This document shows positions 6,375-60,740 of a stretch of 64,000 bases of DNA, piece by piece. The notes under the pieces were generated by a model. The model made no database searches and was not told where the DNA came from. It saw nothing but the letters and a program-made list of their open reading frames with translations. Where the stretch lies: assembly GCA_050258455.1 (NCBI GenBank), contig JBLMYT010000061.1, positions 41,049-105,048 on the forward strand. The letters are read 5' to 3'. Source of the stretch: Candidatus Omnitrophota bacterium (GTDB lineage Bacteria > Acidobacteriota > Aminicenantia > UBA2199). A program made the translations under genes and the position numbers. Position 1 is the stretch's first letter; each line of letters opens with the position of its first letter.

Positions 6375-6406
6375 TCTCGTATGGCGTTACGTGTACTTAA
6401 CTCCGA

Positions 6407-9400
6407 CTATCTGTTTTGGCTACCGGAAATGGATATTCTATGGCAGTATTGTTTCATGATTTTAAGACCTTTTTCGGTCCAGTCGCTTTCTTGTTCCAGG
6501 TTTTCAAAGGAACATCCCTGAATCAATAGGCCCGGCACATTAATTATTTTCAATTCCGAAATACTCATATCGTTCGGTTCGTATACGGGGAAGTTTAGGG
6601 CATATTCTATTATATTAGTTCTTATGCATTTTCCAGTTTCCGCGTCCCATTCTTTGATGGTGTAATCACAGGAAGTTGAAAGGATGCGTTTCTCATCCAC
6701 ACGGTACACCGCGCTCCATACGTAATCTTCATGCCCGGTAATGGTCTTGATGCATTGGCCAGTTTCCGCATCCCACTCTTTGATGGTGCGGTCATGCGAA
6801 GCCGAAAGGATGCGTTTTCCATCGGCCCGGTACACCGCACTGTTTACCGCACCTTCATGCTCGGTAAGGGTCTTGACGCATTGCCCTGTTTCCGCGTCCC
6901 ACTCCTTGATGGTGCGGTCATGCGAAGCCGAAAGGATGCGTTTCCCATCCGAACGGTACACCGCATTAACTACTGCACTCGTATGCCCTGAAAGGGTTTT
7001 GAGGCATTGCCCGGTTTTCGCGTCCCACTCTTTGATGGTGTGATCATCCGAAGCCGTAAGGATGCGTTTTCCATCGGCGCGGTAAAACGCACTTCTTACA
7101 CCCCCCTCATACCCGAAAATGATCTTGATGCATTGCCCTGTTTCCGCGTCCCACTCCTTGAGGGTATGATCGCTGTAAGTGGAAATGATGTGTTTCCCAT
7201 CCTCACTATACTTCGCGCTTATTATATCACTTTTATGCCCTGAAAAGGTCTTGATGCATTGTCCGGTATCCGCGTCCCACTCTTTGATGGTGTGATCATC
7301 CGAAGCCGAAAGGATGCGTTTCCCATCAGAACGGTACACCATACTGGTTACTCTTTCTGCATACCCTGAAAAGGTCTTGATGCATTGTCCGGTTTCTGCA
7401 TCCCACTCTTTGATAGTGCGATCCGCAGAAGCCGAAAGGATGCGTTTCCCATCCGCACGATATACCGCGCTGTTTACTTCACCTTCATGCCCGGTAAGGG
7501 TCTTGATGCATTGCCCTGTTTCCGCGTCCCACTCTTTGATGGTGTGATCCGAGGAAGCCGAAAGGATGCGTTTGCCATCGGCACGGTACACCACGCTCCA
7601 TATAATATCGTCATGCCCGGAAATTGTCTTGATGCATTGCCCTGTTTCCGCGTCCCACTCTTTGATGATGCCATCCCGGAAAGCCGAAAGAATGCGTTTC
7701 CCATTCGAACTGTATACTGCACTGATTACCACATCGTCATGCCCGGAAAGGGTTTTGAGGCATTGCCCCGTTTCTGCATCCCACTCTTTGATGGTGCAAT
7801 CCGAAGCCGAAAGAATGCGTTTGCCATCGGCATGGTACACCACGCTCCATATAATATCGTCATGCCCGGAAATTGTCTTGATGCATTGCCCGGTTTCCGC
7901 GTCCCACTCTTTGATGATGCCATCCCGGAAAGCCGAAAGAATGCGTTTCCCATCGGCACGGTACACCACGCTATCTGCAGGTAAAAAATGCCCGTAAAGG
8001 GTCTTGTTGCATTGTCCTGTTTCCGCGTCCCATTCGTTGATGCCATCCCTCGAAGTCGAAAGGATGCGTTTCCCATCCGAACGATAGACCGCGCTTCTTA
8101 CCCAACCCTTATGCCCTGAAATTGTCTTGATGCATTGTCCGGTTTCCGCATCCCACTCTTTGATGGTGTGATCATCCGAAGCCGAAAGGATGCGTTTCCC
8201 ATCGGAACTGTATACCGCGCTTTTTACCCCCCCCTTATGCCCCTGGGGCAGCACATTCTTCTCATGCACCCGTGACCCTTCAAAATTTGCCGCTAAAAGA
8301 TACTGGTTATAATAATAACAACTGCATGTTACCCCATTCAACGATACTTCGGATAAATCAAGCCTCGTTAAATCCGCACCGGTTAATTCTGCTCGCACCA
8401 ATTTCCATATCTCCACTATATTCCATACGGCATAACCGATAGGATTCTCAGCCCCATTGAATTTACCCCGACATAAATCCAATGCCTGATGCAAAAAACT
8501 TTCTCTATTTATGTCAATCTTCCACCCCTCTCCTTCAACGATGTATGGCTTGACCCGGTGCTCCCCTTCAAACTCACCCATAAACCGGCGTACAAAATAA
8601 TCCAATACCCGCTCTTTCAATACGGAAGGTATCTCCCCCTTCTTGACACTCATCTCGACCTCATTCAGTACATGAACAGCGGCAAAAAAGTCACGGAAGT
8701 TCTGATGCAAAAACCGGTACATGCCTCTTTCTTCCACCAACATGGACATTTCCTGAATTAGGATCCCCCGAATTTTTGTATTTCTTTTCTTTATTTGCTT
8801 AAAATCCTTTAATTCTTCTACAGGAAGCACTTCAATAAATTTTTCATATTCGATAAATGTATCAAAAAAATCATTGTAAGAAAACCGAACGCAAAGCGCA
8901 TCGATATGCTGATCGAGTTGTTCTTTAGTAAACGCAAACAAACCGGCTTTCTCCATTTCATATCCCAACCCGGGCAGTAAAAATATTAAGAGAAATTTGT
9001 AATACGCAATCTGCTTTTCATCTTGACCCAACTTGTCCCGCCATACGGCCACCTGCGCTTGCATAAAGTTCCATAACAATTCACCGGGAGTTTCAACATC
9101 AGGTTTGAAATCACATCCCGGCGTATGCTGGTGGTTTTCCTGGATTTCGCATGACGCGGTATACAAGGTTAACATCATGGGGTTGCGGATTAAATTCTTT
9201 AATTCCGTTCCTTCCGGTAGGTTTTTTCTTATTTTTTTTAGATATTCAGCGATTTGGTGGTCTTCCAGCGGTTTCAACATCAACCCGCCCCAATGAATGA
9301 ATCCCCATTCTTTCCGGATGTCCCATCGGCCGGTAATCACAATCTGTACTCCCGGGTATTGTTCGGCAATGGTCTTGATTTCCAGAACCAATTGATTGTC

Positions 9401-23700: not shown

Positions 23701-25874
23701 CTCAGACATCGATTTTTATTTTGGATCGTTATATGGACCTATTACCGGTAGGTGTGCAAGGTGAGGTTTATATCGGTGGCTTCGGACTGGCCAGAGGATA
23801 TTTAAACAATCCCGAACTAACAAGCGATAAATTTATTAATATAAATAAAAATATAAATAAACAACCAAACAATCCCCAAAATAAAAGTTTTTGGTCCCAC
23901 CTTTTTTCAAAAAGGTGGGCCGCCGGAGGCATTGTCTATAAAACGGGGGATTTAGGACGATGGTTGCCGGATGGAGCGATTGAGTTCATGGGGAGAGTGG
24001 ATCATCAGGTGAAGATTCGGGGTTTTCGGATTGAATTGGGGGAAATTGAGAGCGTGTTGGTCAAGCATGAATCTGTTAAAGAAGCAGTGGTTGTTTCAAA
24101 GCAGGACCAGAAGGGGAGTCATCTGTATTTGATTGCTTATCTGGTCGGAGAACAAGAGCTAGAAGAGAAACAGATCAGGGAATACATGTCGAAGGAATGT
24201 CCGAGTCATATGATTCCCTCCTATTTTATTCCGGTTGAATCCTTTCCATTAACGCGAAATGGGAAGATCGATGTTGCTGCGTTACCGGAACCCGGGCAAA
24301 TGGCGAGCAAGAATTATGTGCCGCCTCAGAATGAAATCGAAGAAAAGTTAGCGGACATATGGTCTGAATTATTAAAAACGCAGCGCGATGTCATCGGCAT
24401 TGACGATAGTTTTTTTGAGTTGGGTGGGCATTCGTTAAAAGCGGCGCAATTGGTATCCCGGATGAAAAATGAATTGGATTCTTCCGTGACGCTTCCGGAA
24501 GTATTTAAAACGCCCACGATTCGGCAGTTGGCGGCGCGTGTTTCTGCCGGTTCGGATGAAAACATTGAAACCATACCGTTTGTCGAACAGAGAGAATATT
24601 ATCCCACATCTTATAGTCAACAGCGGATATGGAAGTTCCAGTCGAACCATCCCGGGAGTACGGCGTTCAGCCTTCACGAGCATATTCCGTTGAATCTTGA
24701 GGTTGATATCGATGTCATTCGACATGTTCTGGCCGAGTTAGCGAATCGGCATGAAAGTTTCCGAACCTGGTTTAAGGAAATCAACGGGGAACCCTTTCAG
24801 TTTATTGAACCGGTTGTAGAGATTCCCGTAGAAGTTATCGATATTTCATCCTTACCGGAAGAAGAGAGGGAAGCGGCCGTATCGAAAATTTATGATAATG
24901 TTGCCTTGAAACCGTTTGACCTTGGGCGTGCGCCATTGGTGGATGTCGTATTGGTAAAAAGGGAAAACCGGGTATGGGATTTCATATGGAATTTGCAGCA
25001 TATTATTACGGATGGGTATTCGCAGGACGTATTAAAAGATGAATTCATGGCGTTGTACACAGCCGCATTGGAAAAAAGACCTGCACCATTGGCGCCTATT
25101 TCCTTGACCTACAAAGATTTTGCCGTATGGCAGCGGCGCCGAGTCGGTCGTGCGGGAGACAAAGAAGAAGCGGTTCAATATTGGAAAACCAAACTCAAGG
25201 AAGGGTTTCCGGATCTTCGACTTCCGTTTGATTCGCGCCCGCCGTCGGATGACCTTCGGAGCATCCGGCTTCACACCTTTATACCTGAGAATATAAAAAC
25301 GGGTTTGGAAAAAATTATTGAAAAGCATCATTATACGCTGTTTATGGTATTACTGACCGCGTTTAATCTGGCGTTGCATCGATTGACCGGGCAGACCGAA
25401 ATTGCGCTCCGGGTTGTGAATGCCGGAAGGGAACGTCCTGAATTGCAACCGTTAATTGGGTATTTTGTTCACCCGGCGGTGGTCAAAAGCACGGTTGAAG
25501 GCGATGAACCGTTTATTGAGTTATTAACGCGAACGGCTGATAATGCCTTAAAGGTATTTCAATACCAATGGTATCCGTTGGAAGAAGCGGCCCGGGATTT
25601 GGGGATGAAAACACCGAACCTGTATATCTCTTTTAATATGCAAAACATCAGTGAAAGTCGGATTGATGCGGATGTAGACGTGAAAGAACCGTATATTACG
25701 GAGGATGAGAAGATAAAGGCCAAGTATCCGTTGAATGTACGGTTGATTGCGTATCGGAATTGCATTGGGGTTGTATGGGAAGCCCAAAAAGTGTTATTCA
25801 AGCCGCAAACGTTAAGAAAAATATTTGATGCGTATTTGGACGCGTTGGCAATCGCGGTTGGCGAAAAACCATAA
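17733..25874 (+). CDS. Non-ribosomal peptide synthetase, C-A-T-C-A-T-C
   Basis: C motifs: HHAIIDGWS, MHHIISDGVS (nt ~21643-21672), LQHIITDGYS (nt ~24992-25021). Two A domains: LAYVIYTSGSTGKPKG, YKTGDLGRW, KIRGFRIELGEIE, NGKIDV. Two T domains: FFELGGHSLKA. No TE or R domain. Confidence 0.95.
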   Translation: MSATKLPQDFEDLYPLTDIQKGMLFHSFSDSDRFVYYVVNVYYLNFKDFDANLFRRVFDLMVEKHSILRTGFNMHDFKEPVQIVYKTIIPDIVHHDISSMGKTEQDAYLERLISTEKTTAFDVLNAKALWRMRTVSLEGDRICFIWVAHHAIIDGWSFASLMTEVDNTYIRLKTDINFVPPKLRATYKHYVADQLAEKKKPENILFWKAELDDYKRLHFPGSSSITHESGRKMALTKDFDSGFSKRLTDVARTYNTSLKHLFFGAYVYMLSMLSYENDIVVGLITNCRPGFPDAEKIIGCFLNTVPVRLKIPAGLRWKDYILMVEAKLREIKKYDRYSFFEIVRTIGEMTQNQNPICDTIFNFTDFHVYDQMELGTSASSGPDHPMHDNHTDNGYRLLVLETDGTNTLFDFTISNSGGNFNLLLNFGEALVCSESAIALCRYFEKILYKFIEEPDCMISKEALITDEEKETLLFHFNRAGADDPSEKTISELFEDQALRSPDHLALIGSTSVGALREAPLKKSYWAVREPPLQMTYRELNERCNALTFKLMQQGVGPDSIVGIKMERSIEMIIGIMGILKAGGAYLPIDPSYPQERIDYMLNDSRAGLFLTGDTEVTENASGVFSEQVELGRIHVVDLFRRGAPACAPGQTHGSAPTENLPEYLNQASFPSVNSVSSVRNSNLAYVIYTSGSTGKPKGVLTMHRNVVRVVKNTNYIDIQPEDRVLQLSNVAFDGSVFDIYGALLNGACLVMIGKDEVIEIDRLARVIRQEQVTVFFSTTALFNTLVELRIDSLNRIRKVLFGGERVSIEHSRKALEYLGKGRIIHVYGPTETTVYASYYPIDEIKEKAMTIPIGKPLTQTSMFVLDRYMDLLPVGVQGEVYIGGFGLARGYLNNPELTAEKFIGCRLPVAGNLFPNQNNLNPPQNKSFWSHLFSKRWAAGGIVYKTGDLGRWLLDGSIEFMGRVDHQVKIRGFRIELGEIESVLIKHESVNEAMVVSKQDQKGSHLYLIAYLVVEQEIEEKRIREYMAKECPSYMIPSYFIQVESFPLTPNGKIDVKSLPQPDHASISTCNYVAPRDEIEKKLSDIWGEVLGIPNDRIGIEDNFFELGGHSLKATTMAAKIHKSLDIRISLGQVFKNPSIRGISEFIRGMQRNRFSSIEPVEMKEYYVLSSPQKRMYVLQQMEPGSVFYNIPEFIPMAGEVDIDRLEKVFQLLIQRHESLRTSFHMMGEEPVQKVHGNVEFRIELFLTVHTEDAEGEKKKLRSGEDEKLSIAERFIKRFDLAKAPLMRVGLLKGEKDYLLMIDMHHIISDGVSREVLKRDFVSIYNGEDLSPLRIQYKDFAEWQSGNSEREKRNQQEAYWVNEFEGEIPVLNITLDYPRPAVQSFEGSTFGFELDVEDIKGIRSIIKEENATIFMVLLAAYNILFMKLSGQEDVIIGTPVAGRVHADLEKIIGMFVNTLALRNYPAGEKTFRGFLRELKQQTLAAFENQEYYFEDLVERIALSRDVARNPLFDVMFALQNMGSDSVDASKTDENGGQESDSLYEGKTSKFDMTLHGVETGNRLLFKIEYCTRLFKRETIERFSRYFKQIISHGVKFPEDRLSDIVILTEEEKHRLLVEFNESGTDNPSDKTIPELFEDEVEKGPDRLAVVHSVVKITYKQLNEQSNVLAGILQEKGVGADTIVGIRMERSVELIIGILGILKAGGAYLPIDPSYPQERIDYMLNDSRAKLLLATEDTEFTEKIGGEVNFLFAAKEAEDNYRINIKYRINIKLIDGDSYQPSSYQSSSYPSSSYSSSPYPSFFSSVSSVNSVAKNLAYVIYTSGSTGKPKGVLTMHRNVVRVVKNTNYIDIQPEDRVLQLSNYAFDGSVFDIYGALLNGACLVMIGKDELIEMDRLARVIRQEQVTVFFSTTALFNTLVELRIDSLNRVRKVLFGGERVSIEHSRKASEHLGKGRIIHVYGPTETTVYASYYPIDEIKEKAVTVPIGMPLTQTSIFILDRYMDLLPVGVQGEVYIGGFGLARGYLNNPELTSDKFININKNINKQPNNPQNKSFWSHLFSKRWAAGGIVYKTGDLGRWLPDGAIEFMGRVDHQVKIRGFRIELGEIESVLVKHESVKEAVVVSKQDQKGSHLYLIAYLVGEQELEEKQIREYMSKECPSHMIPSYFIPVESFPLTRNGKIDVAALPEPGQMASKNYVPPQNEIEEKLADIWSELLKTQRDVIGIDDSFFELGGHSLKAAQLVSRMKNELDSSVTLPEVFKTPTIRQLAARVSAGSDENIETIPFVEQREYYPTSYSQQRIWKFQSNHPGSTAFSLHEHIPLNLEVDIDVIRHVLAELANRHESFRTWFKEINGEPFQFIEPVVEIPVEVIDISSLPEEEREAAVSKIYDNVALKPFDLGRAPLVDVVLVKRENRVWDFIWNLQHIITDGYSQDVLKDEFMALYTAALEKRPAPLAPISLTYKDFAVWQRRRVGRAGDKEEAVQYWKTKLKEGFPDLRLPFDSRPPSDDLRSIRLHTFIPENIKTGLEKIIEKHHYTLFMVLLTAFNLALHRLTGQTEIALRVVNAGRERPELQPLIGYFVHPAVVKSTVEGDEPFIELLTRTADNALKVFQYQWYPLEEAARDLGMKTPNLYISFNMQNISESRIDADVDVKEPYITEDEKIKAKYPLNVRLIAYRNCIGVVWEAQKVLFKPQTLRKIFDAYLDALAIAVGEKP
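19270..19289. repeat. GGGCGCTTC-GA-GAAGCGCCC palindrome, in frame (VGALREAP)
   Basis: Identical core to 2977-2996. Confidence 0.8.
19306..19325. repeat. GGGCGGTTCG/CGAACCGCCC palindrome, in frame (WAVREPP), followed by CTACAAA
   Basis: Perfect 10-bp arms. Differs from the intergenic GGGCGATTCG/CGAATCGCCC by one compensated pair. Confidence 0.8.
19563..19768 (+). repeat. Inverted-repeat-bounded insertion between A2 and A3 motifs, in frame
   Basis: Arms: cacaggggacacggaggtcacggag (19563-19587) and cctctgtgaactccgtgtcctccgtgag (19741-19768). Interior holds GGGCGCAC..GTGCGCCC (19655-19676) and GGGCAGAC..GTCTGCCC (19677-19698). Confidence 0.7.
20508..20554 (+). repeat. Hairpin element in A6-A7 loop, in frame (KSFWSHLFSKRWAAGG)
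   Basis: AAAAGTTTTTGG, then palindrome CCCACCTTTTT-TC-AAAAAGGTGGG (20521-20544), then CCGCCGGAGG. Confidence 0.8.
21468..21501 (+). repeat. CACGGAGGA-type 9-mer run inside the C domain, in frame (LTVHTEDAEG)
   Basis: tttctcacggtgcacacggaggacgcggaggggg, at the same C-domain position as 1716-1792. Confidence 0.6.
22929..23167 (+). repeat. Inverted-repeat-bounded insertion between A2 and A3 motifs, in frame, with different cargo
   Basis: Arms: gccacagaggacacagagttcacagag (22929-22955) and cctctgtgtcctctgtgaactctgtggc (23140-23167). Cargo: an 18-bp repeat (RINIKYRINIK) and five 15-bp repeats at 23061-23135 (SYQPS SYQSS SYPSS SYSSS PYPSF). Confidence 0.7.
23883..23929 (+). repeat. Hairpin element in A6-A7 loop, in frame
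   Basis: Same sequence as 20508-20554. Palindrome at 23896-23919. Confidence 0.8.
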
Positions 25875-27571: not shown

Positions 27572-28981
27572 TTACGCCTTCTTTTTCTTTCGGTCGCGGT
27601 ATACTTTCTTCAGATAAATTTCCCAGATGTCGTTTTGATACACGCACGCCGCCTTGTTTAACCGGTTCCATTGATCGATCCCGGACAAAATGCATCCGCC
27701 CGCGCAAATCCCAACCAATCGGCATTCCATACACTCGCGGCGCAACGTATCCATCCGCTCCCGGATGTACCGGGAGGAATGATCCCAGAGAGCCGGATCA
27801 TAGATATTCTCATTGAGATCTTTAAACGGCATGGCTGCCTTTTTAATGTATCCGCACAAGTGCGAGACAGAAAGCTCGGTTAAATTGAACTCGATACCCA
27901 AACGAGGGAAACCGGATAGCCCCGGACAATTGAAGGCAAAACGATACGCATCCTGGTTAATCTTATTTTTGGCCGTCGTGAAAATCGATTCCTCGACCCG
28001 GAATCCTTCCGGCGTATTGGATTCGAGAAACCATCCCATTAACTTCGCCTTTTCTCGGGCATCTTCTTCGGAAACCTCCAGTAAATTCGGGGCCAGCCGT
28101 GCTGCCGCAAACCCATACCGATCCATGCGGTAAACGTCTTCCGGCTTAAAATCCTCCAGGGATTTGATGGTGCCCTGAAAAATGACCGGGGGCGTATTCG
28201 GATTGTGCATCCGGTAAAGTTCGACGTTACGAATGACATCATCGAAGGACCCTTTTCCATTATGGTAAACCCGGCTCTTATCGTGTGCGTCCCGGTATCC
28301 GTCGATACTGAGATGCACTTTAAAATGGTGGCGATTGAAAAAACGGGCAATTTCTTCGGTTAATAACGTCATATTGGTATTGATGCTGTATTCCACATTG
28401 AACTGCGAATATCGGGTTGAAATCCGATTGACAATTTTTTCCATCAACGGCCAATCGGCCAGCATCTCGCCTCCGTTAAAAAAAACTTTGGCTTCCCGAA
28501 CCCCACGCTTCACTTTCCGTTCAAAGAATTGATCGATGCACATTTCAACCGCCCGCATCCGCTCGTGCGGATGGAATTGACCGCCACCCAGAGACGCCGC
28601 ATGTTTGTTCACACAGTAGGAACACCCCAGATTACACACATTGGTCATGAATTTCAATTCGTTGTAATCGGCTTCCGTGTCGTAAAATTCCCTGGCATTG
28701 CGGTCCAGTTCTTTCAGTTTTTGGTCGATCAGAGCCAGAAAATCCTTTTCTGACGGATCGGTATCCCCTTCATAAAGGAACTTGTGCTTTTTCGATTCAT
28801 TGATAAAGTAAGCAATATTGTCATTGGACTCAAAGGGTGTCTGTTGATCGATCCGATCCAGAAGCCCGATGGCTGCTTTATTCAAAATGAAAATCGAAGG
28901 AAAAAAACGGTTCCACCCAATGTAGATATCGGTATCTACCTCGACGTAATGCAAGTATTTCGATACATTTAAATCTGTCAT
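27572..28981 (-). CDS. Radical SAM / SPASM-domain peptide-modifying enzyme with N-terminal PqqD-like (RRE-like) region
   Basis: CNLGCSYC (CX3CX2C). C-terminal CMECRLVGICAGGC (CX2CX5CX3C, SPASM). The N-terminal ~90 aa (IYIGWNRF..IFILNKAAIGLLDRI) resemble a RiPP recognition element. Confidence 0.8.
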   Translation of the reverse strand: MTDLNVSKYLHYVEVDTDIYIGWNRFFPSIFILNKAAIGLLDRIDQQTPFESNDNIAYFINESKKHKFLYEGDTDPSEKDFLALIDQKLKELDRNAREFYDTEADYNELKFMTNVCNLGCSYCVNKHAASLGGGQFHPHERMRAVEMCIDQFFERKVKRGVREAKVFFNGGEMLADWPLMEKIVNRISTRYSQFNVEYSINTNMTLLTEEIARFFNRHHFKVHLSIDGYRDAHDKSRVYHNGKGSFDDVIRNVELYRMHNPNTPPVIFQGTIKSLEDFKPEDVYRMDRYGFAAARLAPNLLEVSEEDAREKAKLMGWFLESNTPEGFRVEESIFTTAKNKINQDAYRFAFNCPGLSGFPRLGIEFNLTELSVSHLCGYIKKAAMPFKDLNENIYDPALWDHSSRYIRERMDTLRRECMECRLVGICAGGCILSGIDQWNRLNKAACVYQNDIWEIYLKKVYRDRKKKKA

Positions 28982-29140
28982 CGCTTAATATTAACATCCC
29001 CCTATATTTTTTTCAATAAAATTTCGCTGGAATTGGAGGGTAATTTTTTTGGGGAAAAGGGTTGGATAAAAAAAGTGAACTGTGATATTTTATATAATCA
29101 TAATATATCAAACGGTTTCATTACCAATCAGAGGTTACAA

Positions 29141-30520
29141 ATGATTAAGATATTATTAATAGAAGATCAGCCAATCATGATTAAGATGCTCAAAATGCTT
29201 CTGGAACGCCATCTGTTCGGGGTCGTCGTTGCTCCCACCGTTGCCGAAGCAGCCGAAAAAATTGAACATGACAATTTTGATGTGATACTCCTGGATTTAC
29301 AATTGCCGGACGGAAACGGCATTGAATTGTTTGACCGATTTCCCAAAAAGATGGAATCCAAGACCATTATTATTACCTCCAACGTATCGGTATCCAGCGT
29401 TGTCCTGGCCATAAAAAAAGGAGCCTTCAATTACCTGGAAAAACCGGTGGACGAAGAATTACTCACCGCGCAAATTCGAAAAATCGCCGAGCTAAAAATT
29501 CTGGAACGCAGTTATCGATCCATCAAATCCGAAGTGACCTCGGATTACGGTTTCGAGGATATCGTTTACGAGAGCCGCCAAATTGCCGAGATCATCCATC
29601 GGGCCAAGATATTGGCCCAGACCGATAACGCCATTTTGATTCAGGGAGAAACCGGTGTGGGCAAGGATATCCTGTCCCGTTCGATTCACAATTGTTCCAA
29701 TCGAAAAAGCGAAGTATTTATGCCGCTCAATTGTGCGTCCATTCCCCACGAGCTATTCGAGTCGGAACTCTTTGGTTTTGCCAAAGGGGCCTTTACCGGC
29801 GCCGTGGATAGTTACAGCGGGCGATTGATCCAGGCCAATAAAGGCACCCTGTTTCTGGATGAAATCGGCGAATTGCCGCTTCATATCCAGGCCAAATTGT
29901 TACGCATCCTGGAAGAACGCGTCGTGTACCCGCTGAAAAGCAAAACCCCGGTAAAAATCGATATCCGGTTGATCTCCGCGACCAACAAGAGCCTGATGGA
30001 TGAAGTCAATCTCAAACAATTCCGAAGCGACCTGTACTACCGATTGAAAGAGTCGACCCTCTACATTCCGCCGCTTCGCGAACGGGCCGATGATATTTTA
30101 CCCCTCATCCGTCATTTTATCCGGATCTATAACCATGTGTATAATAAAAATATAACCAAAATCAGTCGAAGGGCCGAAAACTATTTCCTTAATTACTCAT
30201 GGAAAGGCAATGTGCGCGAATTAAAAAATTTGATTAAAAGCATGATTCCCTTCAAGAAAAACGATACGCTGGATCTGGACGATTTGTCCTATGCCACGAT
30301 GGAAGCCCGGGAACCGGTGGAGAAACGGTATTTGACGCTGGATGAACATGAAAAGAAATACATCCATGAGATATTGAAAGTCACCAATTATAATATCAGC
30401 CAATCCTCCAAATTATTGGGAATCAATCGGCCGCGGCTGTATCGAAAACTCAAACAATTTAATCTGGAAGAAGCATTGGTGAATTCGGAGATTTCGCAAG
30501 ACTCGATACCGGATCAATAA
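29141..30520 (+). CDS. Sigma-54-dependent response regulator (NtrC family): receiver + AAA+ + Fis-type HTH
   Basis: MIKILLIEDQ..DVILLDLQLPDGNG receiver. GETGVGKD Walker A. ESELFGFAKGAFTGA (GAFTGA loop). C-terminal NISQSSKLLGINRPRLYRKL HTH. Start chosen at 29141 (RBS GAGG 5-6 nt upstream) rather than the ORF-track 29033. Confidence 0.9.
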   Translation: MIKILLIEDQPIMIKMLKMLLERHLFGVVVAPTVAEAAEKIEHDNFDVILLDLQLPDGNGIELFDRFPKKMESKTIIITSNVSVSSVVLAIKKGAFNYLEKPVDEELLTAQIRKIAELKILERSYRSIKSEVTSDYGFEDIVYESRQIAEIIHRAKILAQTDNAILIQGETGVGKDILSRSIHNCSNRKSEVFMPLNCASIPHELFESELFGFAKGAFTGAVDSYSGRLIQANKGTLFLDEIGELPLHIQAKLLRILEERVVYPLKSKTPVKIDIRLISATNKSLMDEVNLKQFRSDLYYRLKESTLYIPPLRERADDILPLIRHFIRIYNHVYNKNITKISRRAENYFLNYSWKGNVRELKNLIKSMIPFKKNDTLDLDDLSYATMEAREPVEKRYLTLDEHEKKYIHEILKVTNYNISQSSKLLGINRPRLYRKLKQFNLEEALVNSEISQDSIPDQ

Positions 30521-46640: not shown

Positions 46641-47186
46641 ATGAAAAGATTTTATGTTATTTTGTTAGCTGTCGTGTTGATGATCACATTCTCGACCTCT
46701 TGCAAAAAGGAAATCAAAACCGAACCCAAAATAAAAGAAGAGCCCAAAAAAGTGGAGAAAGTTGAAGAAGTTCAACCCCAAATCGAAAAACCTCAGCCCA
46801 CCGAAGAAGATATTTTCAGACAAAGCACCCTTGAAGAACTGAACAATAAAGGTTATTTAAAGCGAATCAACTTCGACTTCGATAAATATGATATTAGAGA
46901 GGATATGAAGCCCGTCCTGGAACAAAATGCCCAGTGGTTGCTCAAGCACCCGACCGTGATGGTCATCATCGGTGGCCATTGCGATGAGCGCGGAACCGAA
47001 GAATACAACATGGCGCTGGGTGAAAAAAGAGCGGATGCAATGAAAAAATATTTGGTATCCCTCGGCGTCCCTGCCGATCGGTTAAACGTGGTCTCGTATG
47101 GGAAATCCATGCCTCTGGTCAAAGGGAACGACGAAGAAAGCTTCTTCCTTAACCGAAGAGCCGAGCCCCTGATTTCCAAAAAATAA
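46641..47186 (+). CDS. pal: Peptidoglycan-associated lipoprotein Pal (OmpA-like)
   Basis: Lipobox FSTSC. FDFDKYDIR..IGGHCDERGTEEYNMALGEKRA. Confidence 0.9.
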   Translation: MKRFYVILLAVVLMITFSTSCKKEIKTEPKIKEEPKKVEKVEEVQPQIEKPQPTEEDIFRQSTLEELNNKGYLKRINFDFDKYDIREDMKPVLEQNAQWLLKHPTVMVIIGGHCDERGTEEYNMALGEKRADAMKKYLVSLGVPADRLNVVSYGKSMPLVKGNDEESFFLNRRAEPLISKK

Positions 47187-55287: not shown

Positions 55288-57156
55288 TTAACGGTAAGGG
55301 TTGGCGGGCAGGGCCAGATTCAAATACCGATCATCCATGTGTAACACCAGATCCTTTTCCATCAAATCGGCCAGTGTTTTCTGAAGCCATTCCACGTCGT
55401 CGTCAAAACGCTTGGTCAGGGCATCCCAACTGCTGGCATCATCCAGAAATTCAATCAACTCGGCTTCCCGATCCATATACACATACCGGCAGAGTACGCC
55501 GCTTCGGGTGTCTTCCACATGGACCGTGTCCACGGATTTGTGGTACCGCAGTTTGGGCCGACTCCCGGTTTCCCAGCGCTTTTTCCATTCGGCGACTTTG
55601 GAAAGGATGTTGCGATAATTGGATACCTCCGGCGTATTTCCGACTTTGTGCATGAAGTAATACGACACGTGCTGGAGGTCAAAGCGTTCCCCGGGAAAAA
55701 TGTAATTGTAACAATAGGCCGGGATCATATCGGATATGGCGTAATCCCAGCGATTCAGATACATCGGAGACCCCCGTTCGGCCCGTGCGCGCGTAATCGC
55801 GTAAGGCGGCTGAAAATGCGGAATTTTGGAAATGACCTTGCACTGCAATTCATAATCCTCAATGGTTTCACCCGGGAAACCAAAGAGAAGGTTATACAAA
55901 TCGACAATCCCATAGTAGGTACACCACTTGACGAATTCAATATTGCGAATACCGATGATGTGCTTCTTCATCAATTGGAGGATATGGGTGGAAAAGCTCT
56001 CGATACCGGGCTGAACGGAGAAGAGTCCCCCGCTTTTCAGGCGCTTTAACTGAGCCCGGGTGAAACACGGCCTCACTTCGTAATGGATCAGAAAGTCCGA
56101 CCGATTATCGGCCAGCCGACCGAACACCTTCTCAATGTACTCCGGGGCCATAATATTATCGATGGCATTGAAATACAGGTAATTGTACTTTCGGGAAAGC
56201 GTTTTGAGCATGCCCAACACATTTTCGGCACTCTTGCAGCGAAACTCCAAACCCGCGCGGTTCAAGCCGCAAAACGTGCAGTGATTTTTCATGCCCCACC
56301 AGCATCCCCGGGCGGTCTCAATCGGTAACATGGGATTTTTTTTGCCCGGAAATTGCGCAGAACTGTACCCGCTTTCCTTATAAGCGTAGAAGTACTCGTC
56401 ATAATCGGGAACCGGTGTGATGTCCATATTATTCAATATGGGAGACCTGCCATTGTAAATGATCTGGCCGTCTTTTCGCCACATCAAGCCCGGTAACCCC
56501 TCCATCGACTCGTCTCGTTCCAGCCGGTGGATCATCTCGGGTAAGGTCTTATCGGCATCCCCGCAATGGATGTAATCGATAAACGGGCACCCGGTCATGA
56601 TGCTTTCCGCAATGTCATCTTCGAAGGTTCCGCCGCCAAAAATAATCGGGATATGCGGGTAGCGTCCCTTAAGGGCTCGCGCCAGGGCAATACTGGACGC
56701 CATCTGCTGAAAGACCACCGAGAACCCAATCAGTTGAAAACGGCTCCAGTCGATGCGATTCAGGCAAAATTCAATAAACGAAAAGGTTTTGTTGTTTCGA
56801 ATTTCCAGGAGATCGTCGATCGTACAATCGGCTTGGTTGCACAGGTCCTCCAGGCTCTCCTTGTAGTAACTGATGTAGTCTTTGTCCTCGTTGAACTGAC
56901 CAAAGGCGGCTTTGGACCAGATCCACTCGCCGGCAATACAGGGGCGGGCCTCGGAGAGCACTTCATTGAGCGTATATCCGATATGCATCCCAAAGTACAT
57001 ATACATCGAAAAGGTCTGCACATCGATCCCTTCGCGCTGAAGGGTGGGTTTGAGTAATGCCAACTGAAAGGATGGCAAATAACCTGCCAATACCGGCATA
57101 CTGACCAATGCCGTCCGGATTTTGGTTGTTTTGTCTTCGTTTGATTCACCCATCAA
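55288..57156 (-). CDS. B12-binding-domain radical SAM enzyme of the RiPP-maturation C-methyltransferase type
   Basis: N-terminal ALVSMPVLAGYLPSFQLALLKPTL. IFGGGTFED B12-like region. Cluster motif ARGCWWGMKNHCTFCGLN (Cx7Cx2C, nt 56269-56304). From memory this matches the family TIGRFAMs names rSAM_ocin_1. Confidence 0.75.
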   Translation of the reverse strand: MMGESNEDKTTKIRTALVSMPVLAGYLPSFQLALLKPTLQREGIDVQTFSMYMYFGMHIGYTLNEVLSEARPCIAGEWIWSKAAFGQFNEDKDYISYYKESLEDLCNQADCTIDDLLEIRNNKTFSFIEFCLNRIDWSRFQLIGFSVVFQQMASSIALARALKGRYPHIPIIFGGGTFEDDIAESIMTGCPFIDYIHCGDADKTLPEMIHRLERDESMEGLPGLMWRKDGQIIYNGRSPILNNMDITPVPDYDEYFYAYKESGYSSAQFPGKKNPMLPIETARGCWWGMKNHCTFCGLNRAGLEFRCKSAENVLGMLKTLSRKYNYLYFNAIDNIMAPEYIEKVFGRLADNRSDFLIHYEVRPCFTRAQLKRLKSGGLFSVQPGIESFSTHILQLMKKHIIGIRNIEFVKWCTYYGIVDLYNLLFGFPGETIEDYELQCKVISKIPHFQPPYAITRARAERGSPMYLNRWDYAISDMIPAYCYNYIFPGERFDLQHVSYYFMHKVGNTPEVSNYRNILSKVAEWKKRWETGSRPKLRYHKSVDTVHVEDTRSGVLCRYVYMDREAELIEFLDDASSWDALTKRFDDDVEWLQKTLADLMEKDLVLHMDDRYLNLALPANPYR

Positions 57157-57204
57157 ATTCCCCCTAAATTTAAATTTTAAATTTAATTCTTTATTCTTTT
57201 AAAT

Positions 57205-60057
57205 TTAATTTGCCAACAGTTTTAAAACGGCTGCCAGGGTATGTTGAACAAAATCGGTTCGGATGTCGCTTTGATACAGGCTGGCTCGAACGCCTCCCAA
57301 CGCCCACTCCGAATTGGGCAATATCGGAGCGTCTCGCTCCTGAATGATCAGGCGATCCAAAAAACCGACCCCTTTCAAACAGGCCTCCCGATACCGGTCC
57401 GCCCGTCTCCGTTCTCCCAAAACCGTCGCCAGTGTCGCCGCATCCCCCAGCCCTTCCAGGTACAGGGCCGTGGTAAACCCCGGCGTATCGGGTTGGTGAT
57501 CATTCCAAAAGCCGCCTCCTTTTTGATCCTGAAATTCCAGGATCCACTCGCCGATTTCGAAAACAAAGGCTGCAAATTCGGGTTCATGGGTGACCAAAAA
57601 CCATTCGCTAAAGGCTTGCATCATCCACGAGACCTGACCGAAATCACGCTTGTACCGAAATCGCCGACGGTAGAATTCAAAGGCACGCTGCAATTTTACC
57701 GCGTCCACCGTACTGATTCCGACCCGGCACGCCTTACCCAGCGCCAGCAACATCTGGCCCGGAAAGTAATCCTGAAACCCATCGTTGTCCATGGCAGGGT
57801 CTAAAAAGACCTCGACTTTACCGTGACGGTTGATGCGAGACCACAAGGTGTCGGCGATTTGAGACCCGATGGTCCGATATATTTCAACATCCGGCGAATG
57901 AGAAATCGCCAACAGCAAAAAGCTACTTTCCGAAACCGACGGGCTGTTGTCTTCCTGTTTGAGCCATACCTGGCCATGGGGATCCGATTCCACCAGGTTT
58001 AACAGATACGAAAGGAGTTTGGCCGAAGATTCCCGGACCTCCGAACGGTTGGTTTTTTCGCCCAGAACCATCAGCGCCCAACATGCGTGTGCCAGCCGCG
58101 GCAGGTCGACTTTTTCCGTGAGCGTGTCCGTGAAAGGGGAATAGTGAAAATACAACGCCCCATCTTCCTTTTGAAGCCGCAGGAGATAATCGGAAAGCAG
58201 CCGGGCATCGTACTCAAGGTTTTCTTCCGGATGATCCGAGGGGGGGGCAATGGGAAACATCCCCTTCATCATTCGGGGTTCCTGACCCGGCACCACCATC
58301 CAGGTTTGGCATTCGTACCGCCGCCAGTGATACGGCGGTCGGGTAATCCCGGCTTTATCGATGACCTCCAGGGCGTACGCGTCCGGCGTGAGGTTGAGTA
58401 ACGCGGCGGTAAAGGGGAGCAGCAGCCCGCTCCGCTTTCCTTGAGAGACCATGAGGGCCTGCTCACCGAAACGGATCCGGACCATGATCTCGTCGGGAGG
58501 AAGAACACCGATATCCAGCGGATCTCGGAGAAAGGAGACGGTCACTGCGGTGCAATTGGCTATCGGGGATTCCCCAAAGCGGGAATCGGCGATCACTTGG
58601 TGGCATATCGTTTGAAGATCCTCGTCCAGATGAGCGATCGTTGAGCCCATGCATCCTTTTAGTTTTCCCTCTTCATAAACGGTGACGAAAATCGAATCCA
58701 GATCCGTAAACATGAGATTATCCGGCAGAGGGTCGGTCGAGGGAGGCGTGTGAGCGAGCGTGGACGTCACCAGATCCAATGCCCGATGGGCAATCTTTCC
58801 TGCGGCCTGGAGATCGGCGTACCATTCCCAGGTATCGTGTTTGGGTACGCCGGTGGGTTGCCAAACTTCATTCGGTTCCACCACTTTGACCACATCGTGG
58901 CGGAGAATTCGGTAAGGCTCGAAACGAACAAGACCGGCGTTTTTGATTCGGGCATGTTGAAACTGCATCCAGGAATTGGAAATCCCGGGCATGCGGGGCA
59001 GGGCGCCCCCCATGACTCCCGGGCGTTCCCGGCTGAGTACCACAATCCCATACCGGTCATTATCCAGTTCACCCACCGTGCATTCTTCCATGGCGGAAAA
59101 AAACGTGACCGCAACCGCACTTTCTTGCAATTGCTTCTTTCCGGCGTCTCCCTTCTCCAACTTGAGGACCGTCTTTAACGCCGCCCGAACCAAATCTTCG
59201 CCGATCGGCCCAAAAGACTCGCCGGGAAAATGCCACATGCCTTCCCGAGCATGACGCTGGTAAATGTCGGACCGAGGACGGACGCTGACCCAAACCCCTC
59301 CCGCACCGTCAACCTCCCGATCCAGACTCAACGGCGGACGAAGAAGCGTCCCGGAATCCAGATACTCGTTCAGGACCAATCGGGCCAGAACGGCCGGATG
59401 CATTCCTTCGGGAGCATGCCGGTTATTCCAGGTAAAATCCGGGTAGAGTTTGGTCGGATTCAAGACCGGGCGGGGTTCATTTTCCATATGGACCATGACG
59501 TCTTCCCAGATATCAAAGAGGGCTTCCATATGATACCCCAATTCCTGCATCTTGCCAAACCCATTGTACCACCCGAAACGCACCAGGCAGACCCCGCCTT
59601 CGACACAAAAACCCTCCTCTTCCAGCCGTCTGCGGCATTCCAACATCGTCCGGCCCGAACTGATCGAGTCATCCACGATGATCACCGGTTCGTCCTTGTG
59701 GATTCGCCCTTCAATGGATTTGCGCGAACCATAGGTTTTGATTTCTTTGCGAACCAGGAGCCCTTCGTAACGCCCGTCCGACTGGAGGATGCAGGAAGCC
59801 ATGAGCGGGATCCCGATGGTGCCGTAGGTGGCCAGGGTATGCCCATTAAAGGTTTCCAGTAGTTTCAAGAGACAGCGGCCAGCCAGGCGAAGGCCTTCGG
59901 TTGTCAGGGACACGCCCAGGGAATCCAACATCCAGCGCGCCGGTTTTCCATCGCCCGACAGAACCGGACGCTCGGGCGTCCCGTAATAGATCCCGTCTTT
60001 AAGCAAAAGCGCCAGTAAACGGTTTTTTTCGTTTGAAAATTGTTCTTTTCCATCCAT
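57205..60057 (-). CDS. Fusion protein: type I phosphoribosyltransferase + two AMMECR1-like domains + C-terminal helical-repeat (alpha/alpha-toroid-like) domain
   Basis: PRTase PRPP loop VIIVDDSISSGRTM (aa 125-138). AMMECR1-like GKLKGCMGST..DSRF..GLLLPF, plus a degenerate upstream copy (GIVVLS..GGALPRMPG..ARIKNAGL). The C-terminal ~330 aa are helical repeats (domain assignment there is inference only). Confidence 0.7.
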   Translation of the reverse strand: MDGKEQFSNEKNRLLALLLKDGIYYGTPERPVLSGDGKPARWMLDSLGVSLTTEGLRLAGRCLLKLLETFNGHTLATYGTIGIPLMASCILQSDGRYEGLLVRKEIKTYGSRKSIEGRIHKDEPVIIVDDSISSGRTMLECRRRLEEEGFCVEGGVCLVRFGWYNGFGKMQELGYHMEALFDIWEDVMVHMENEPRPVLNPTKLYPDFTWNNRHAPEGMHPAVLARLVLNEYLDSGTLLRPPLSLDREVDGAGGVWVSVRPRSDIYQRHAREGMWHFPGESFGPIGEDLVRAALKTVLKLEKGDAGKKQLQESAVAVTFFSAMEECTVGELDNDRYGIVVLSRERPGVMGGALPRMPGISNSWMQFQHARIKNAGLVRFEPYRILRHDVVKVVEPNEVWQPTGVPKHDTWEWYADLQAAGKIAHRALDLVTSTLAHTPPSTDPLPDNLMFTDLDSIFVTVYEEGKLKGCMGSTIAHLDEDLQTICHQVIADSRFGESPIANCTAVTVSFLRDPLDIGVLPPDEIMVRIRFGEQALMVSQGKRSGLLLPFTAALLNLTPDAYALEVIDKAGITRPPYHWRRYECQTWMVVPGQEPRMMKGMFPIAPPSDHPEENLEYDARLLSDYLLRLQKEDGALYFHYSPFTDTLTEKVDLPRLAHACWALMVLGEKTNRSEVRESSAKLLSYLLNLVESDPHGQVWLKQEDNSPSVSESSFLLLAISHSPDVEIYRTIGSQIADTLWSRINRHGKVEVFLDPAMDNDGFQDYFPGQMLLALGKACRVGISTVDAVKLQRAFEFYRRRFRYKRDFGQVSWMMQAFSEWFLVTHEPEFAAFVFEIGEWILEFQDQKGGGFWNDHQPDTPGFTTALYLEGLGDAATLATVLGERRRADRYREACLKGVGFLDRLIIQERDAPILPNSEWALGGVRASLYQSDIRTDFVQHTLAAVLKLLAN

Positions 60058-60136
60058 GTGTTTACCCTTACTCGGAATTTTTGAGATTCCGAAAACTCGC
60101 CAATGATACGATTAAACGATAAAAACGATTAATGAA

Positions 60137-60646
60137 TTATTTGGGTTGTCGAACTTCCGGGGCCACTTCGACGACAATGCCGGGGGGACCATACGGGGCA
60201 ACCTCCACCTGAACCGGTGTGATCCCGATTCGAATCGGCGCTATTTCGACAACCGGGTGATAGGGGACTGTTTCCGGTGCAATCTCGACAACGATCCCTC
60301 CCGGGCGACCCCAACCGGATGGGCTGGGCGCCATTTCCACAATGGGTTTCGGTCGCCAATACGGCGGCCCAACTTCCGTGGCCACTTCCGGATGAGGGCC
60401 AGGGTGTCTGACCTCATACCTGACCTCATATGCCACTTCCGGATGGGGCGGAATAAATACGGCAATTTCCGGATGCGTCGGCACCTGCGGTGCTATTTCC
60501 GGCATTATTTCGGGTGCTATTTCCACGATGATCCCCGAATGGATCGGCGCCCGATAATCCGGCCTTGCATTTTTTAACGTCGGTACATCCCCCTCAGGTG
60601 AAATTTTCCCTGATTTTGATACGACATTTGGTTTTTTTTCTGCCAT
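60137..60646 (-). CDS. 169-aa Pro/Glu/Val/Ile-rich repeat protein, candidate modified-peptide precursor
   Basis: Strong RBS AGGAGGAGGAG 5 nt upstream of the ATG. About 10 copies of [PV]E[IVM]A[PVYT] (VEIAPE x3, VEVAP x2, VEMAP, PEIAP, PEIAV, PEVAY, PEVAT). No signal peptide and no Cys. Confidence 0.65.
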   Translation of the reverse strand: MAEKKPNVVSKSGKISPEGDVPTLKNARPDYRAPIHSGIIVEIAPEIMPEIAPQVPTHPEIAVFIPPHPEVAYEVRYEVRHPGPHPEVATEVGPPYWRPKPIVEMAPSPSGWGRPGGIVVEIAPETVPYHPVVEIAPIRIGITPVQVEVAPYGPPGIVVEVAPEVRQPK

Positions 60647-60740
60647 CTTCTCCTCCTCCTAAAGGACTTTATTTAAATCATCTTTCATTTAAATAAGAAT
60701 CAAAAGTCCAAAATACTATAAATACTTTTTGTCCCACACG

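Follow-up and report, generated by a model that had tools for sequence, protein, structure and literature searches.

The 64,000-nt stretch of the Candidatus Omnitrophota contig JBLMYT010000061.1 analyzed in this study (hereafter, the window) contains, at positions 55288-60646, a cassette of three minus-strand open reading frames (ORFs). In the order of the minus strand, they encode a proline- and glutamate-rich repeat protein, a 950-aa fusion enzyme of four domains, and a B12-binding radical S-adenosylmethionine (SAM) enzyme. Very probably, the cassette works as one unit whose substrate is the repeat protein. We further propose, with the chances about evenly balanced, that it represents an undescribed, self-contained, and horizontally scattered system that modifies a leaderless repeat protein in the manner of RiPPs (peptides made on ribosomes and modified after translation). 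An earlier, sequence-only reading of this DNA had described three co-oriented minus-strand genes with gaps of 79 and then 48 bp, and the ORF coordinates agree with it exactly. The features of the cassette are as follows.

60650..60660, minus strand: Shine-Dalgarno sequence AGGAGGAGGAG, 3 nt 5' of the repeat-protein ATG, read from the sequence.
60137..60646 (ORF 60646-60137), minus strand: repeat protein, 169 aa, ATG start, the candidate substrate; from the ORF and its motif density.
57205..60057 (ORF 60057-57205), minus strand: four-domain fusion enzyme, 950 aa, ATG start; from the ORF, homologs, and an AlphaFold2 model.
59473..60057, minus strand: type I phosphoribosyltransferase (PRTase) domain similar to orotate phosphoribosyltransferase (OPRT), residues 1-195; from fold, profile, and alignments.
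58858..59460, minus strand: AMMECR1-like domain A, residues about 200-400; from the structure of the domain folded alone.
58243..58830, minus strand: canonical AMMECR1 domain B, residues about 410-605; from PF01871 and motifs.
57208..58242, minus strand: (α/α)6 toroid, residues 606-950, without family assignment; from Foldseek.
55288..57156 (ORF 57156-55288), minus strand: B12-binding radical SAM enzyme of family TIGR03975, 622 aa, TTG start; from hidden Markov model (HMM) and motif.

For the fusion architecture, at least 855 homologs were found, most of them full-length and 50-60% identical. A single-sequence locus scan of the GTDB representatives with the fusion protein found no relative; the locus census is a profile-seeded scan with one genome per GTDB species, and it detected relatives in 190 species representatives from at least four phyla, namely Acidobacteriota, Pseudomonadota (Alpha- and Gammaproteobacteria), Myxococcota, and Actinomycetota. 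All counts of neighboring genes given below are based on 80 fetched loci of these 190. The acidobacterial loci among the 80 come from Pyrinomonadaceae, Blastocatellia, Bryobacterales, and other groups, and the further carriers are Alphaproteobacteria, Thiothrix, Myxococcota, and Actinomycetota; two of the carriers are cultured actinomycete isolates, Blastococcus deserti CGMCC 1.15935 and Mycobacterium sp. OAS707.

The three genes travel together across these phyla. The TIGR03975-type radical SAM gene directly adjoins the fusion gene in the same orientation in 68 of the 80 loci, preceding it in 57 cases and following it, as in the window, in 11; most of the remaining loci are cut by a contig end or have a frameshifted radical SAM gene. 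A repeat protein is encoded on the same strand in 53 loci, and in most loci with the flank recovered its gene is directly upstream of the first enzyme gene. The three closest relatives of the window cassette (59-60% identity) keep its order of repeat protein, fusion enzyme, and radical SAM enzyme. Lack of synteny in other genomes would have spoken against the sequence-only reading, and the opposite was observed. Clustering of all neighboring ORFs in the 80 loci revealed no other gene conserved across lineages, and no protease or exporter family in particular.

Two accessory genes are more restricted. In 22 loci, all acidobacterial, the gene immediately upstream of the repeat gene encodes a 2-oxoglutarate (2OG)-Fe(II) oxygenase of family PF13640. 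A gene matching TIGR03913, the "GDL motif peptide-associated radical SAM/SPASM maturase" (650 bits versus a cutoff of 592), is loosely linked to the cassette in 15 loci (L006, L007, L009, L016, L018, L025, L033, L040, L041, L051, L052, L056, L063, L066, and L068), at distances of up to about 6 kb and with no fixed position or orientation; it may belong to a neighboring RiPP system or be part of a larger island. Neither accessory gene is present in the window.

Several loci depart from the common arrangement. In two well-flanked loci, L059 from Myxococcaceae and L067 from Thiothrix, the fusion enzyme with all its motifs intact and the repeat protein are retained and there is no radical SAM gene, and in L045 the fusion gene was found with neither a radical SAM gene nor a repeat protein detected. 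Thus the fusion enzyme is not merely an accessory of the radical SAM enzyme. A different order is seen in a metagenome-assembled genome (MAG) of Candidatus Angelobacter (L050, 199-6137), where a 310-aa repeat-like protein and a second, divergent radical SAM enzyme (32% identity) are encoded, in this order, after the fusion gene, and the tail of another radical SAM gene precedes the fusion gene at the contig start. In two alphaproteobacterial MAGs (L039, 5125-6396 / 6113-9844, and L057, 5073-6930), the radical SAM frame is split, either as a pseudogene or through an assembly error.

The repeat protein of the window contains 19.5% proline and nine E-[VILM]-x-P motifs (e.g., within IVVEIAPE, VVEIAP, VEVAP, and IVEMAP), a motif density about ten times that of any other window ORF of at least 100 aa. 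Its repeats are degenerate at the DNA level, where Tandem Repeats Finder reported only two short 12-bp arrays. No match was found in Pfam or NCBIfam, and a homology search with the protein returned only itself; motif counting was used in its place. The predicted ribosome-binding site of this small ORF is strong. In the closely related loci L084 and L085, the repeat protein likewise heads the cassette, with repeats of the forms IVEIAPEI and ITEVGPEI.

The repeat proteins of the 53 loci are 67-430 aa long and consist almost wholly of tandem P-E-[V/I]-[A/R/K] units, with 6-40 units per protein (median 19). A tally of 1001 motifs, each anchored on E-[VILM]-x-P, shows isoleucine (51%) or valine (46%; 97% together) after the glutamate, proline (74%) or else threonine or valine before it, and alanine (51%), arginine (24%), or lysine (14%) at the variable position. 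The extreme case is a protein with 40 PEIR units in the Myxococcaceae MAG L059. The spacing between units is irregular owing to extra P-I, T, or V residues. Neither a conserved leader nor a signal peptide was found among the repeat proteins of these loci. The window protein appears to be a somewhat degenerate member of this (P-E-[V/I]-x)n family. The sequence-only reading had spoken of a "repeat peptide"; the repeats are borne out, and the product is better called a repeat protein without a recognizable leader. Six to 40 copies of a stereotyped unit is the pattern expected of an iteratively modified substrate.

Many acidobacterial repeat proteins (e.g., those of L005, L009, L012, L013, L018, L019, L025, L052, and L062) have a basic tail ending in tyrosine. 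These tails, such as PKKY, KKKY, KKTY, and KKSY, are lineage-specific and may be a processing or recognition signal. The lack of both a radical SAM gene and alanine-containing repeats in L059 and L067 raised the idea that the radical SAM enzyme requires the alanine form E-[VI]-A-P; it was rejected, as L079 combines 38 motifs without alanine with an intact radical SAM gene.

The radical SAM enzyme was assigned by the sequence-only reading to the RiPP-maturation C-methyltransferase family, and the profile comparison upholds this assignment: the protein scores 515.1 bits against TIGR03975 (RiPP maturation radical SAM C-methyltransferase; cutoff 281.85), residues 16-616 being aligned end to end with positions 2-606 of the 606-position model. 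Its Cx7Cx2C cluster motif, CWWGMKNHCTFC, spans residues 285-296 (nt 56269-56304). In Pfam, the protein matches Radical_SAM with 42.8 bits and the B12-binding family with 30.4 bits, slightly below the 32.1 cutoff, and many B12-radical SAM models of NCBIfam match the same region. It is thus of the B12 type without a SPASM domain, and since TIGR03975 covers its whole length there is no extra recognition domain. No solved structure was found near it at E up to 1e-3. By analogy with other members of its family, the enzyme is, by a slight lean of the balance, likely to act as a C-methyltransferase on the repeats.

The fusion enzyme is predicted to be a confident single body: the AlphaFold2 model of the 950-aa protein, built on a 120-sequence alignment, has a predicted local distance difference test score (pLDDT) of 94.6 and a predicted template modelling (TM) score of 0.92. 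Foldseek comparison with the PDB gives the domain order OPRT-like PRTase, AMMECR1-A, AMMECR1-B, and (α/α)6 toroid. The PRTase domain, already recognized in the sequence-only reading, is supported by both profile and structure, as the family profile matches OPRTs of the PDB with E 2e-13 to 4e-13 and the fold superimposes on OPRT/PRTase structures from Mycobacterium tuberculosis and Corynebacterium diphtheriae with TM 0.86-0.90, normalized to the target. It falls under single-sequence HMM cutoffs, scoring 48.7 bits for TIGR00336 (pyrE) versus an equivalog cutoff of 106.8. Residue-level alignments were made to 2p1z, 2wns, 3qw4, and 5hkf. The catalytic loop VRKEIKTYG at residues 102-110 (nt 59728-59754) and the PRPP (phosphoribosyl pyrophosphate) loop VDDSISSG at residues 128-135 (nt 59653-59676) match active OPRTs residue for residue; the catalytic-loop segment VRKEIKTYGSRKSIEG is in register with human RRKETKDYGTKRLVEG, and the PRPP loop is in register as well.

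Both AMMECR1 copies claimed from the sequence were recovered, the second by Pfam and the first by structure only. AMMECR1-B scores 49.5 bits against PF01871 (cutoff 25) and carries K467-G468-C469-M-G471 (nt 58645-58659; RGCMG in the family consensus) and D491-S-R493-F494 (nt 58576-58587), corresponding to the AMMECR1 signature motifs RGChG and DxRa defined by Balaji and Aravind (PMC2034487). AMMECR1-A gives no signal at the sequence level: there is no Pfam match at E up to 1, hhalign gives a probability of 0.4% for its similarity to AMMECR1-B, and its profile finds in the PDB only PH0010 at E 0.24. When folded alone, it has a pLDDT of 94.2, and its only significant matches in the PDB are the AMMECR1 structures 1vaj (E 5.7e-8, TM 0.69), 1zq7, and 1wsc. 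It has lost the RGChG cysteine, the motif position reading R-[E/D/G]-G-[F/M]-W.

The C-terminal domain had been read from the sequence as a helical repeat; its helical nature is retained, and the domain is now identified as an (α/α)6 toroid. The nearest folds are GH76, GH88, the AGE-family isomerases, and class II terpene cyclases. No Pfam match and no closer assignment were obtained for it.

Conservation was computed on the 120-sequence alignment and on 77 diverse sequences from several phyla. In the 77 sequences, the invariant positions are R103 and K107 of the PRTase domain, with D129 and D130 nearly so; R260, R268, R271, R345, H387, and K391 of AMMECR1-A; G468, C469, D491, and R493 of AMMECR1-B; and E868, D935, and H939 of the toroid, in which several Trp, Tyr, and Gln residues are also invariant in the 120-sequence alignment. 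Since these key residues are invariant, all four domains look functional. The most conserved domain is AMMECR1-A, with 21.9% invariant columns, among them R226, R260, R268, R271, R345, H368, H387, and K391, and with a conserved block GGALPRMPGI at residues 350-359. That the copy without the cysteine is the most conserved one, and rich in invariant arginines, is the opposite of what is expected of a decayed duplicate.

These data bear on the possibility that the fusion protein is mainly non-catalytic, a docking scaffold or chaperone that, in place of a RiPP recognition element (RRE), brings the leaderless repeats to the radical SAM enzyme, with the PRTase domain serving as a sensor of PRPP or nucleotides. 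Such a role would suit a radical SAM enzyme devoid of an extra recognition domain and a precursor devoid of a leader, and PRTase folds have been reused as regulators, for instance in PyrR and PurR. However, the invariant catalytic-type residues of the four domains exceed the needs of a scaffold, and the invariant key residues of all four domains are kept also in the loci without the radical SAM gene, including L059 and L067 with their repeat proteins. We regard the scaffold role as decidedly unlikely.

Part of the fusion enzyme occurs elsewhere on its own. The toroid has 1346 relatives, many of which are fused to AMMECR1 alone, and a widespread family of stand-alone AMMECR1-toroid proteins of about 590 aa shares with the fusion the canonical AMMECR1 domain and a homologous toroid (26-30% identity) and lacks the PRTase and AMMECR1-A domains. 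Because the AMMECR1 and toroid half occurs alone in these proteins, the PRTase and AMMECR1-A domains appear to be cassette-specific additions. The genomic contexts of the stand-alone proteins are varied, include neither a radical SAM enzyme nor a repeat protein, and give no functional clue. The alignment of the 590-aa group was too divergent for seeding a locus scan, and a single-sequence scan with P0209 returned nothing. In L083 (2293-5869), the stand-alone AMMECR1-toroid genes are tandem paralogs, and in L081 (5689-8872), an AMMECR1-toroid gene is preceded by a toroid-only paralog whose N-terminus resembles, by eye, a signal peptide.

Based on these observations, we suggest the following scheme for the cassette. 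The repeat protein would be the substrate, with the repeats serving as their own recognition element. Each unit would receive methyl groups from the radical SAM enzyme at an unactivated carbon of a side chain, the likeliest site being the always-present beta-branched valine or isoleucine, which by analogy with PoyB and PoyC would become tert-leucine or beta-methylisoleucine; carbons of the glutamate or proline are alternative sites. Independently, the fusion enzyme would act on the same repeats. Its arginine-rich AMMECR1-A domain, the toroid, or both may hold the extended acidic Pro/Glu-rich chain, while a phosphoribosyl-derived group would be attached by the OPRT-like domain at the expense of PRPP. 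The candidate acceptor would be the carboxylate of the invariant glutamate, the one conserved nucleophile of the unit. The adduct might be processed further by the AMMECR1-B cysteine and the Glu/Asp/His site of the toroid, and in Acidobacteriota the upstream 2OG-Fe(II) oxygenase would add an optional extra modification. The AMMECR1 fold class includes the GYF domain, which binds proline-rich peptides (PMC2034487).

The phosphoribosyl part of this scheme is the most tentative. The use of PRPP is suggested by the intact OPRT catalytic and PRPP loops. Known type I PRTases act on small nitrogen nucleophiles, and we know of no PRTase with a peptide or carboxylate nucleophile; because of this lack of precedent, we consider a PRPP-dependent modification of the peptide a doubtful possibility, and its specific form, in which each P-E-[V/I]-x unit is phosphoribosylated at the invariant glutamate or elsewhere and the two AMMECR1 domains bind and process the peptide-linked adduct, a slightly more doubtful one.

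Several further points weigh against the proposed scheme. Every enzymatic step in it is inferred. No conserved protease, exporter, leader peptide, or RRE domain was found in the cassette loci, which is unusual for a RiPP system, and the window repeat protein is more degenerate than most members of its family. Finally, some features could point to a substrate other than a peptide: the nearest folds of the toroid are sugar- and terpene-active enzymes, AMMECR1-toroid proteins of two domains exist without a repeat protein or a radical SAM enzyme, and AMMECR1 has been predicted to act on RNA bases (PMC2034487).

The last three features are also the basis of an alternative in which both enzymes act on a non-peptide compound, such as a nucleotide, a sugar phosphate, an RNA base, or a cofactor, and the repeat protein is a carrier, a product binder, or a co-travelling structural protein; that OPRTs too act on small molecules is in line with it. 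But the radical SAM family is named for, and used in, peptide maturation, and the linkage of the repeat protein to the enzymes across phyla and in two gene orders, with three strictly conserved positions per unit, would be hard to explain. This alternative seems to us improbable, to the same degree as the scaffold.

Alternatively, a small molecule may be made from the repeat protein as a multi-copy precursor, by the logic of pyrroloquinoline quinone (PQQ) or mycofactocin: the units would be modified by the radical SAM enzyme and excised, and the product phosphoribosylated to a nucleotide-like metabolite. The AMMECR1-B cysteine or the toroid could perform the cleavage, and the OPRT-like domain could phosphoribosylate a small amine or heterocycle. 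An intact OPRT machinery is readily understood on these terms, as known PRTases act on small nucleophiles; with a median of 19 and as many as 40 units, each precursor would yield many product molecules, a toroid resembling sugar enzymes would fit the handling of a ribosyl product, and an exporter for a large peptide, none of which is conserved, would be superfluous. On the other hand, there is no recognizable conserved protease, the unit offers no obvious heterocycle-forming chemistry, and the irregular spacing of the repeats is awkward for precise excision. A small-molecule product is unlikely in our view, if less so than the scaffold or the non-peptide substrate.

Modification of the repeat protein itself thus remains the reading that we prefer, and its consequences would be considerable. 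AMMECR1 is widely conserved from archaea to humans and is named for a human contiguous-gene syndrome; to our knowledge, its biochemical function has not been known since the 1990s. Here it is found in one polypeptide with a recognizable transferase, beside the gene for a stereotyped candidate substrate. If phosphoribosylation is true, the AMMECR1 family would gain its first reaction and substrate, and the RiPP repertoire a group derived from a nucleotide precursor; should the PRPP chemistry be real, the cassette could turn out to be categorically new. The cassette would also add a new class of precursors, leaderless and built of 6-40 tandem four-residue units, and a new context for B12-radical SAM methyltransferases. 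With at least 855 homologous fusions and 190 species representatives, it is not a curiosity, and its chemistry is directly testable in culturable carriers.

The surroundings of the cassette in the window are ordinary, with genes for MotA, MotB, and a metallophosphoesterase upstream and for two SurA-like peptidyl-prolyl isomerases downstream. The GC content of the cassette is 52.8% versus 45.4% for the rest of the window, and GC at third codon positions hardly differs. Base composition is weak evidence for horizontal transfer; the patchy spread across phyla is the better argument. No plasmid carriage was found, the sole match in the plasmid search being a single distant one to the toroid.

The genome region is rich in secondary metabolism. 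Two large nonribosomal peptide synthetase genes with Condensation, AMP-binding, and PP-binding domains, both unrelated to the cassette, are at window positions 9-6374 and 17733-25874 (plus strand), the former extending past the window start. Between them are three AAA-ATPase genes in series (12131-13897, 14231-15508, and 15667-17382, plus strand), two with PF09820 and a PD-(D/E)XK nuclease domain and one with AAA_14/DUF4143, and a 1375-aa WD40-repeat protein is encoded at 6407-10534 (minus strand). A second, unrelated radical SAM protein of 469 aa is encoded at 27572-28981 (minus strand), adjoining the sigma-54 response regulator at 29033-30520; in tblastn, its match to the TIGR03913 SPASM enzyme is only weak.

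Among known systems, the cassette was first compared with AmmeMemoRadiSam (TIGR04335, TIGR04336, and TIGR04337), of which the sequence-only reading had considered it a possible variant lacking Memo. The two have in common an AMMECR1 domain with RGChG and DxRa motifs and a gene that adjoins a radical SAM gene. They differ in that the cassette has two copies of AMMECR1 in one protein with a PRTase and a toroid, and that a candidate protein substrate is encoded beside it. Membership in the system was rejected by all three comparisons. The AMMECR1 domain of the fusion scores 50.2 bits against TIGR04335 (AmmeMemoRadiSam system protein A), the cutoff being 99; TIGR04337, the radical SAM enzyme of that system, is absent from the 15 NCBIfam matches of the cassette enzyme, which is of another class; and a scan of 34 of the window's 39 ORFs with 180 aa or more gave no Memo match, the other five being four ORFs that overlap longer genes and the one at 46641-47186 (plus strand). 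The absence of Memo had been noted correctly from the sequence. In the 80 related loci, where no Memo model was run, there is no further conserved family besides the 2OG oxygenase and the loosely linked SPASM radical SAM enzyme. Nor does the fusion depend on a radical SAM enzyme, as it occurs without one in L045, L059, and L067, and AMMECR1-toroid proteins elsewhere also do without it. The suggested variant is thus disfavored, and a derived AmmeMemoRadiSam system, with Memo lost and the radical SAM enzyme replaced, is highly improbable in spite of the neighborhood of AMMECR1 and radical SAM genes.

The OPRT-like domain resembles PyrE in fold (TM up to 0.90), in the catalytic loop RKExKxxG, and in the PRPP loop DDxxSSG. 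Unlike PyrE, it falls under the equivalog cutoff, is part of a 950-aa protein, and is encoded in a context of peptide modification and not in a pyrimidine operon.

The radical SAM enzyme has its closest counterparts in the proteusin-type B12-radical SAM enzymes of TIGR03975, such as PoyB and PoyC from the polytheonamide pathway. These enzymes iteratively methylate many sites of one precursor, including the conversion of valine to tert-leucine, and their genes usually adjoin that of a ribosomal precursor with an NHLP or Nif11-type leader. The cassette shares with them the HMM family and an adjacent gene for a Val/Ile-rich ribosomal substrate. However, this precursor-like gene encodes a leaderless tandem repeat, with neither an NHLP/Nif11-type leader nor a family match, no other maturase family is conserved around the cassette, and the partner enzyme is unprecedented. 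In the open-access papers and bioRxiv preprints covered by our literature search, no description was found of the cassette or of a PRPP-derived RiPP modification, in agreement with the sequence-only reading, which knew of no pathway with this combination. The radical SAM enzyme is of a known family; new are the substrate context, tandem repeats without a leader, and the partner enzyme.

In concept, the cassette comes closest to the poly-cyclopropylglycine system TvgA/TvgB/TvgC, in which the TVGG repeats of the precursor are each modified by a single radical SAM enzyme and a 2OG/Fe oxidase serves as an accessory (PMC9062424). A short Val-containing tandem motif is common to both systems, and a 2OG-Fe(II) oxygenase accompanies the cassette in 22 loci. 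The differences are that TvgB is a radical SAM-SPASM enzyme (PMC9062424) whereas that of the cassette is of the B12 type, and that the tvg cluster contains peptidase and transporter genes, none of which is found in the cassette, and has no counterpart of the AMMECR1, PRTase, and toroid protein that distinguishes the cassette.

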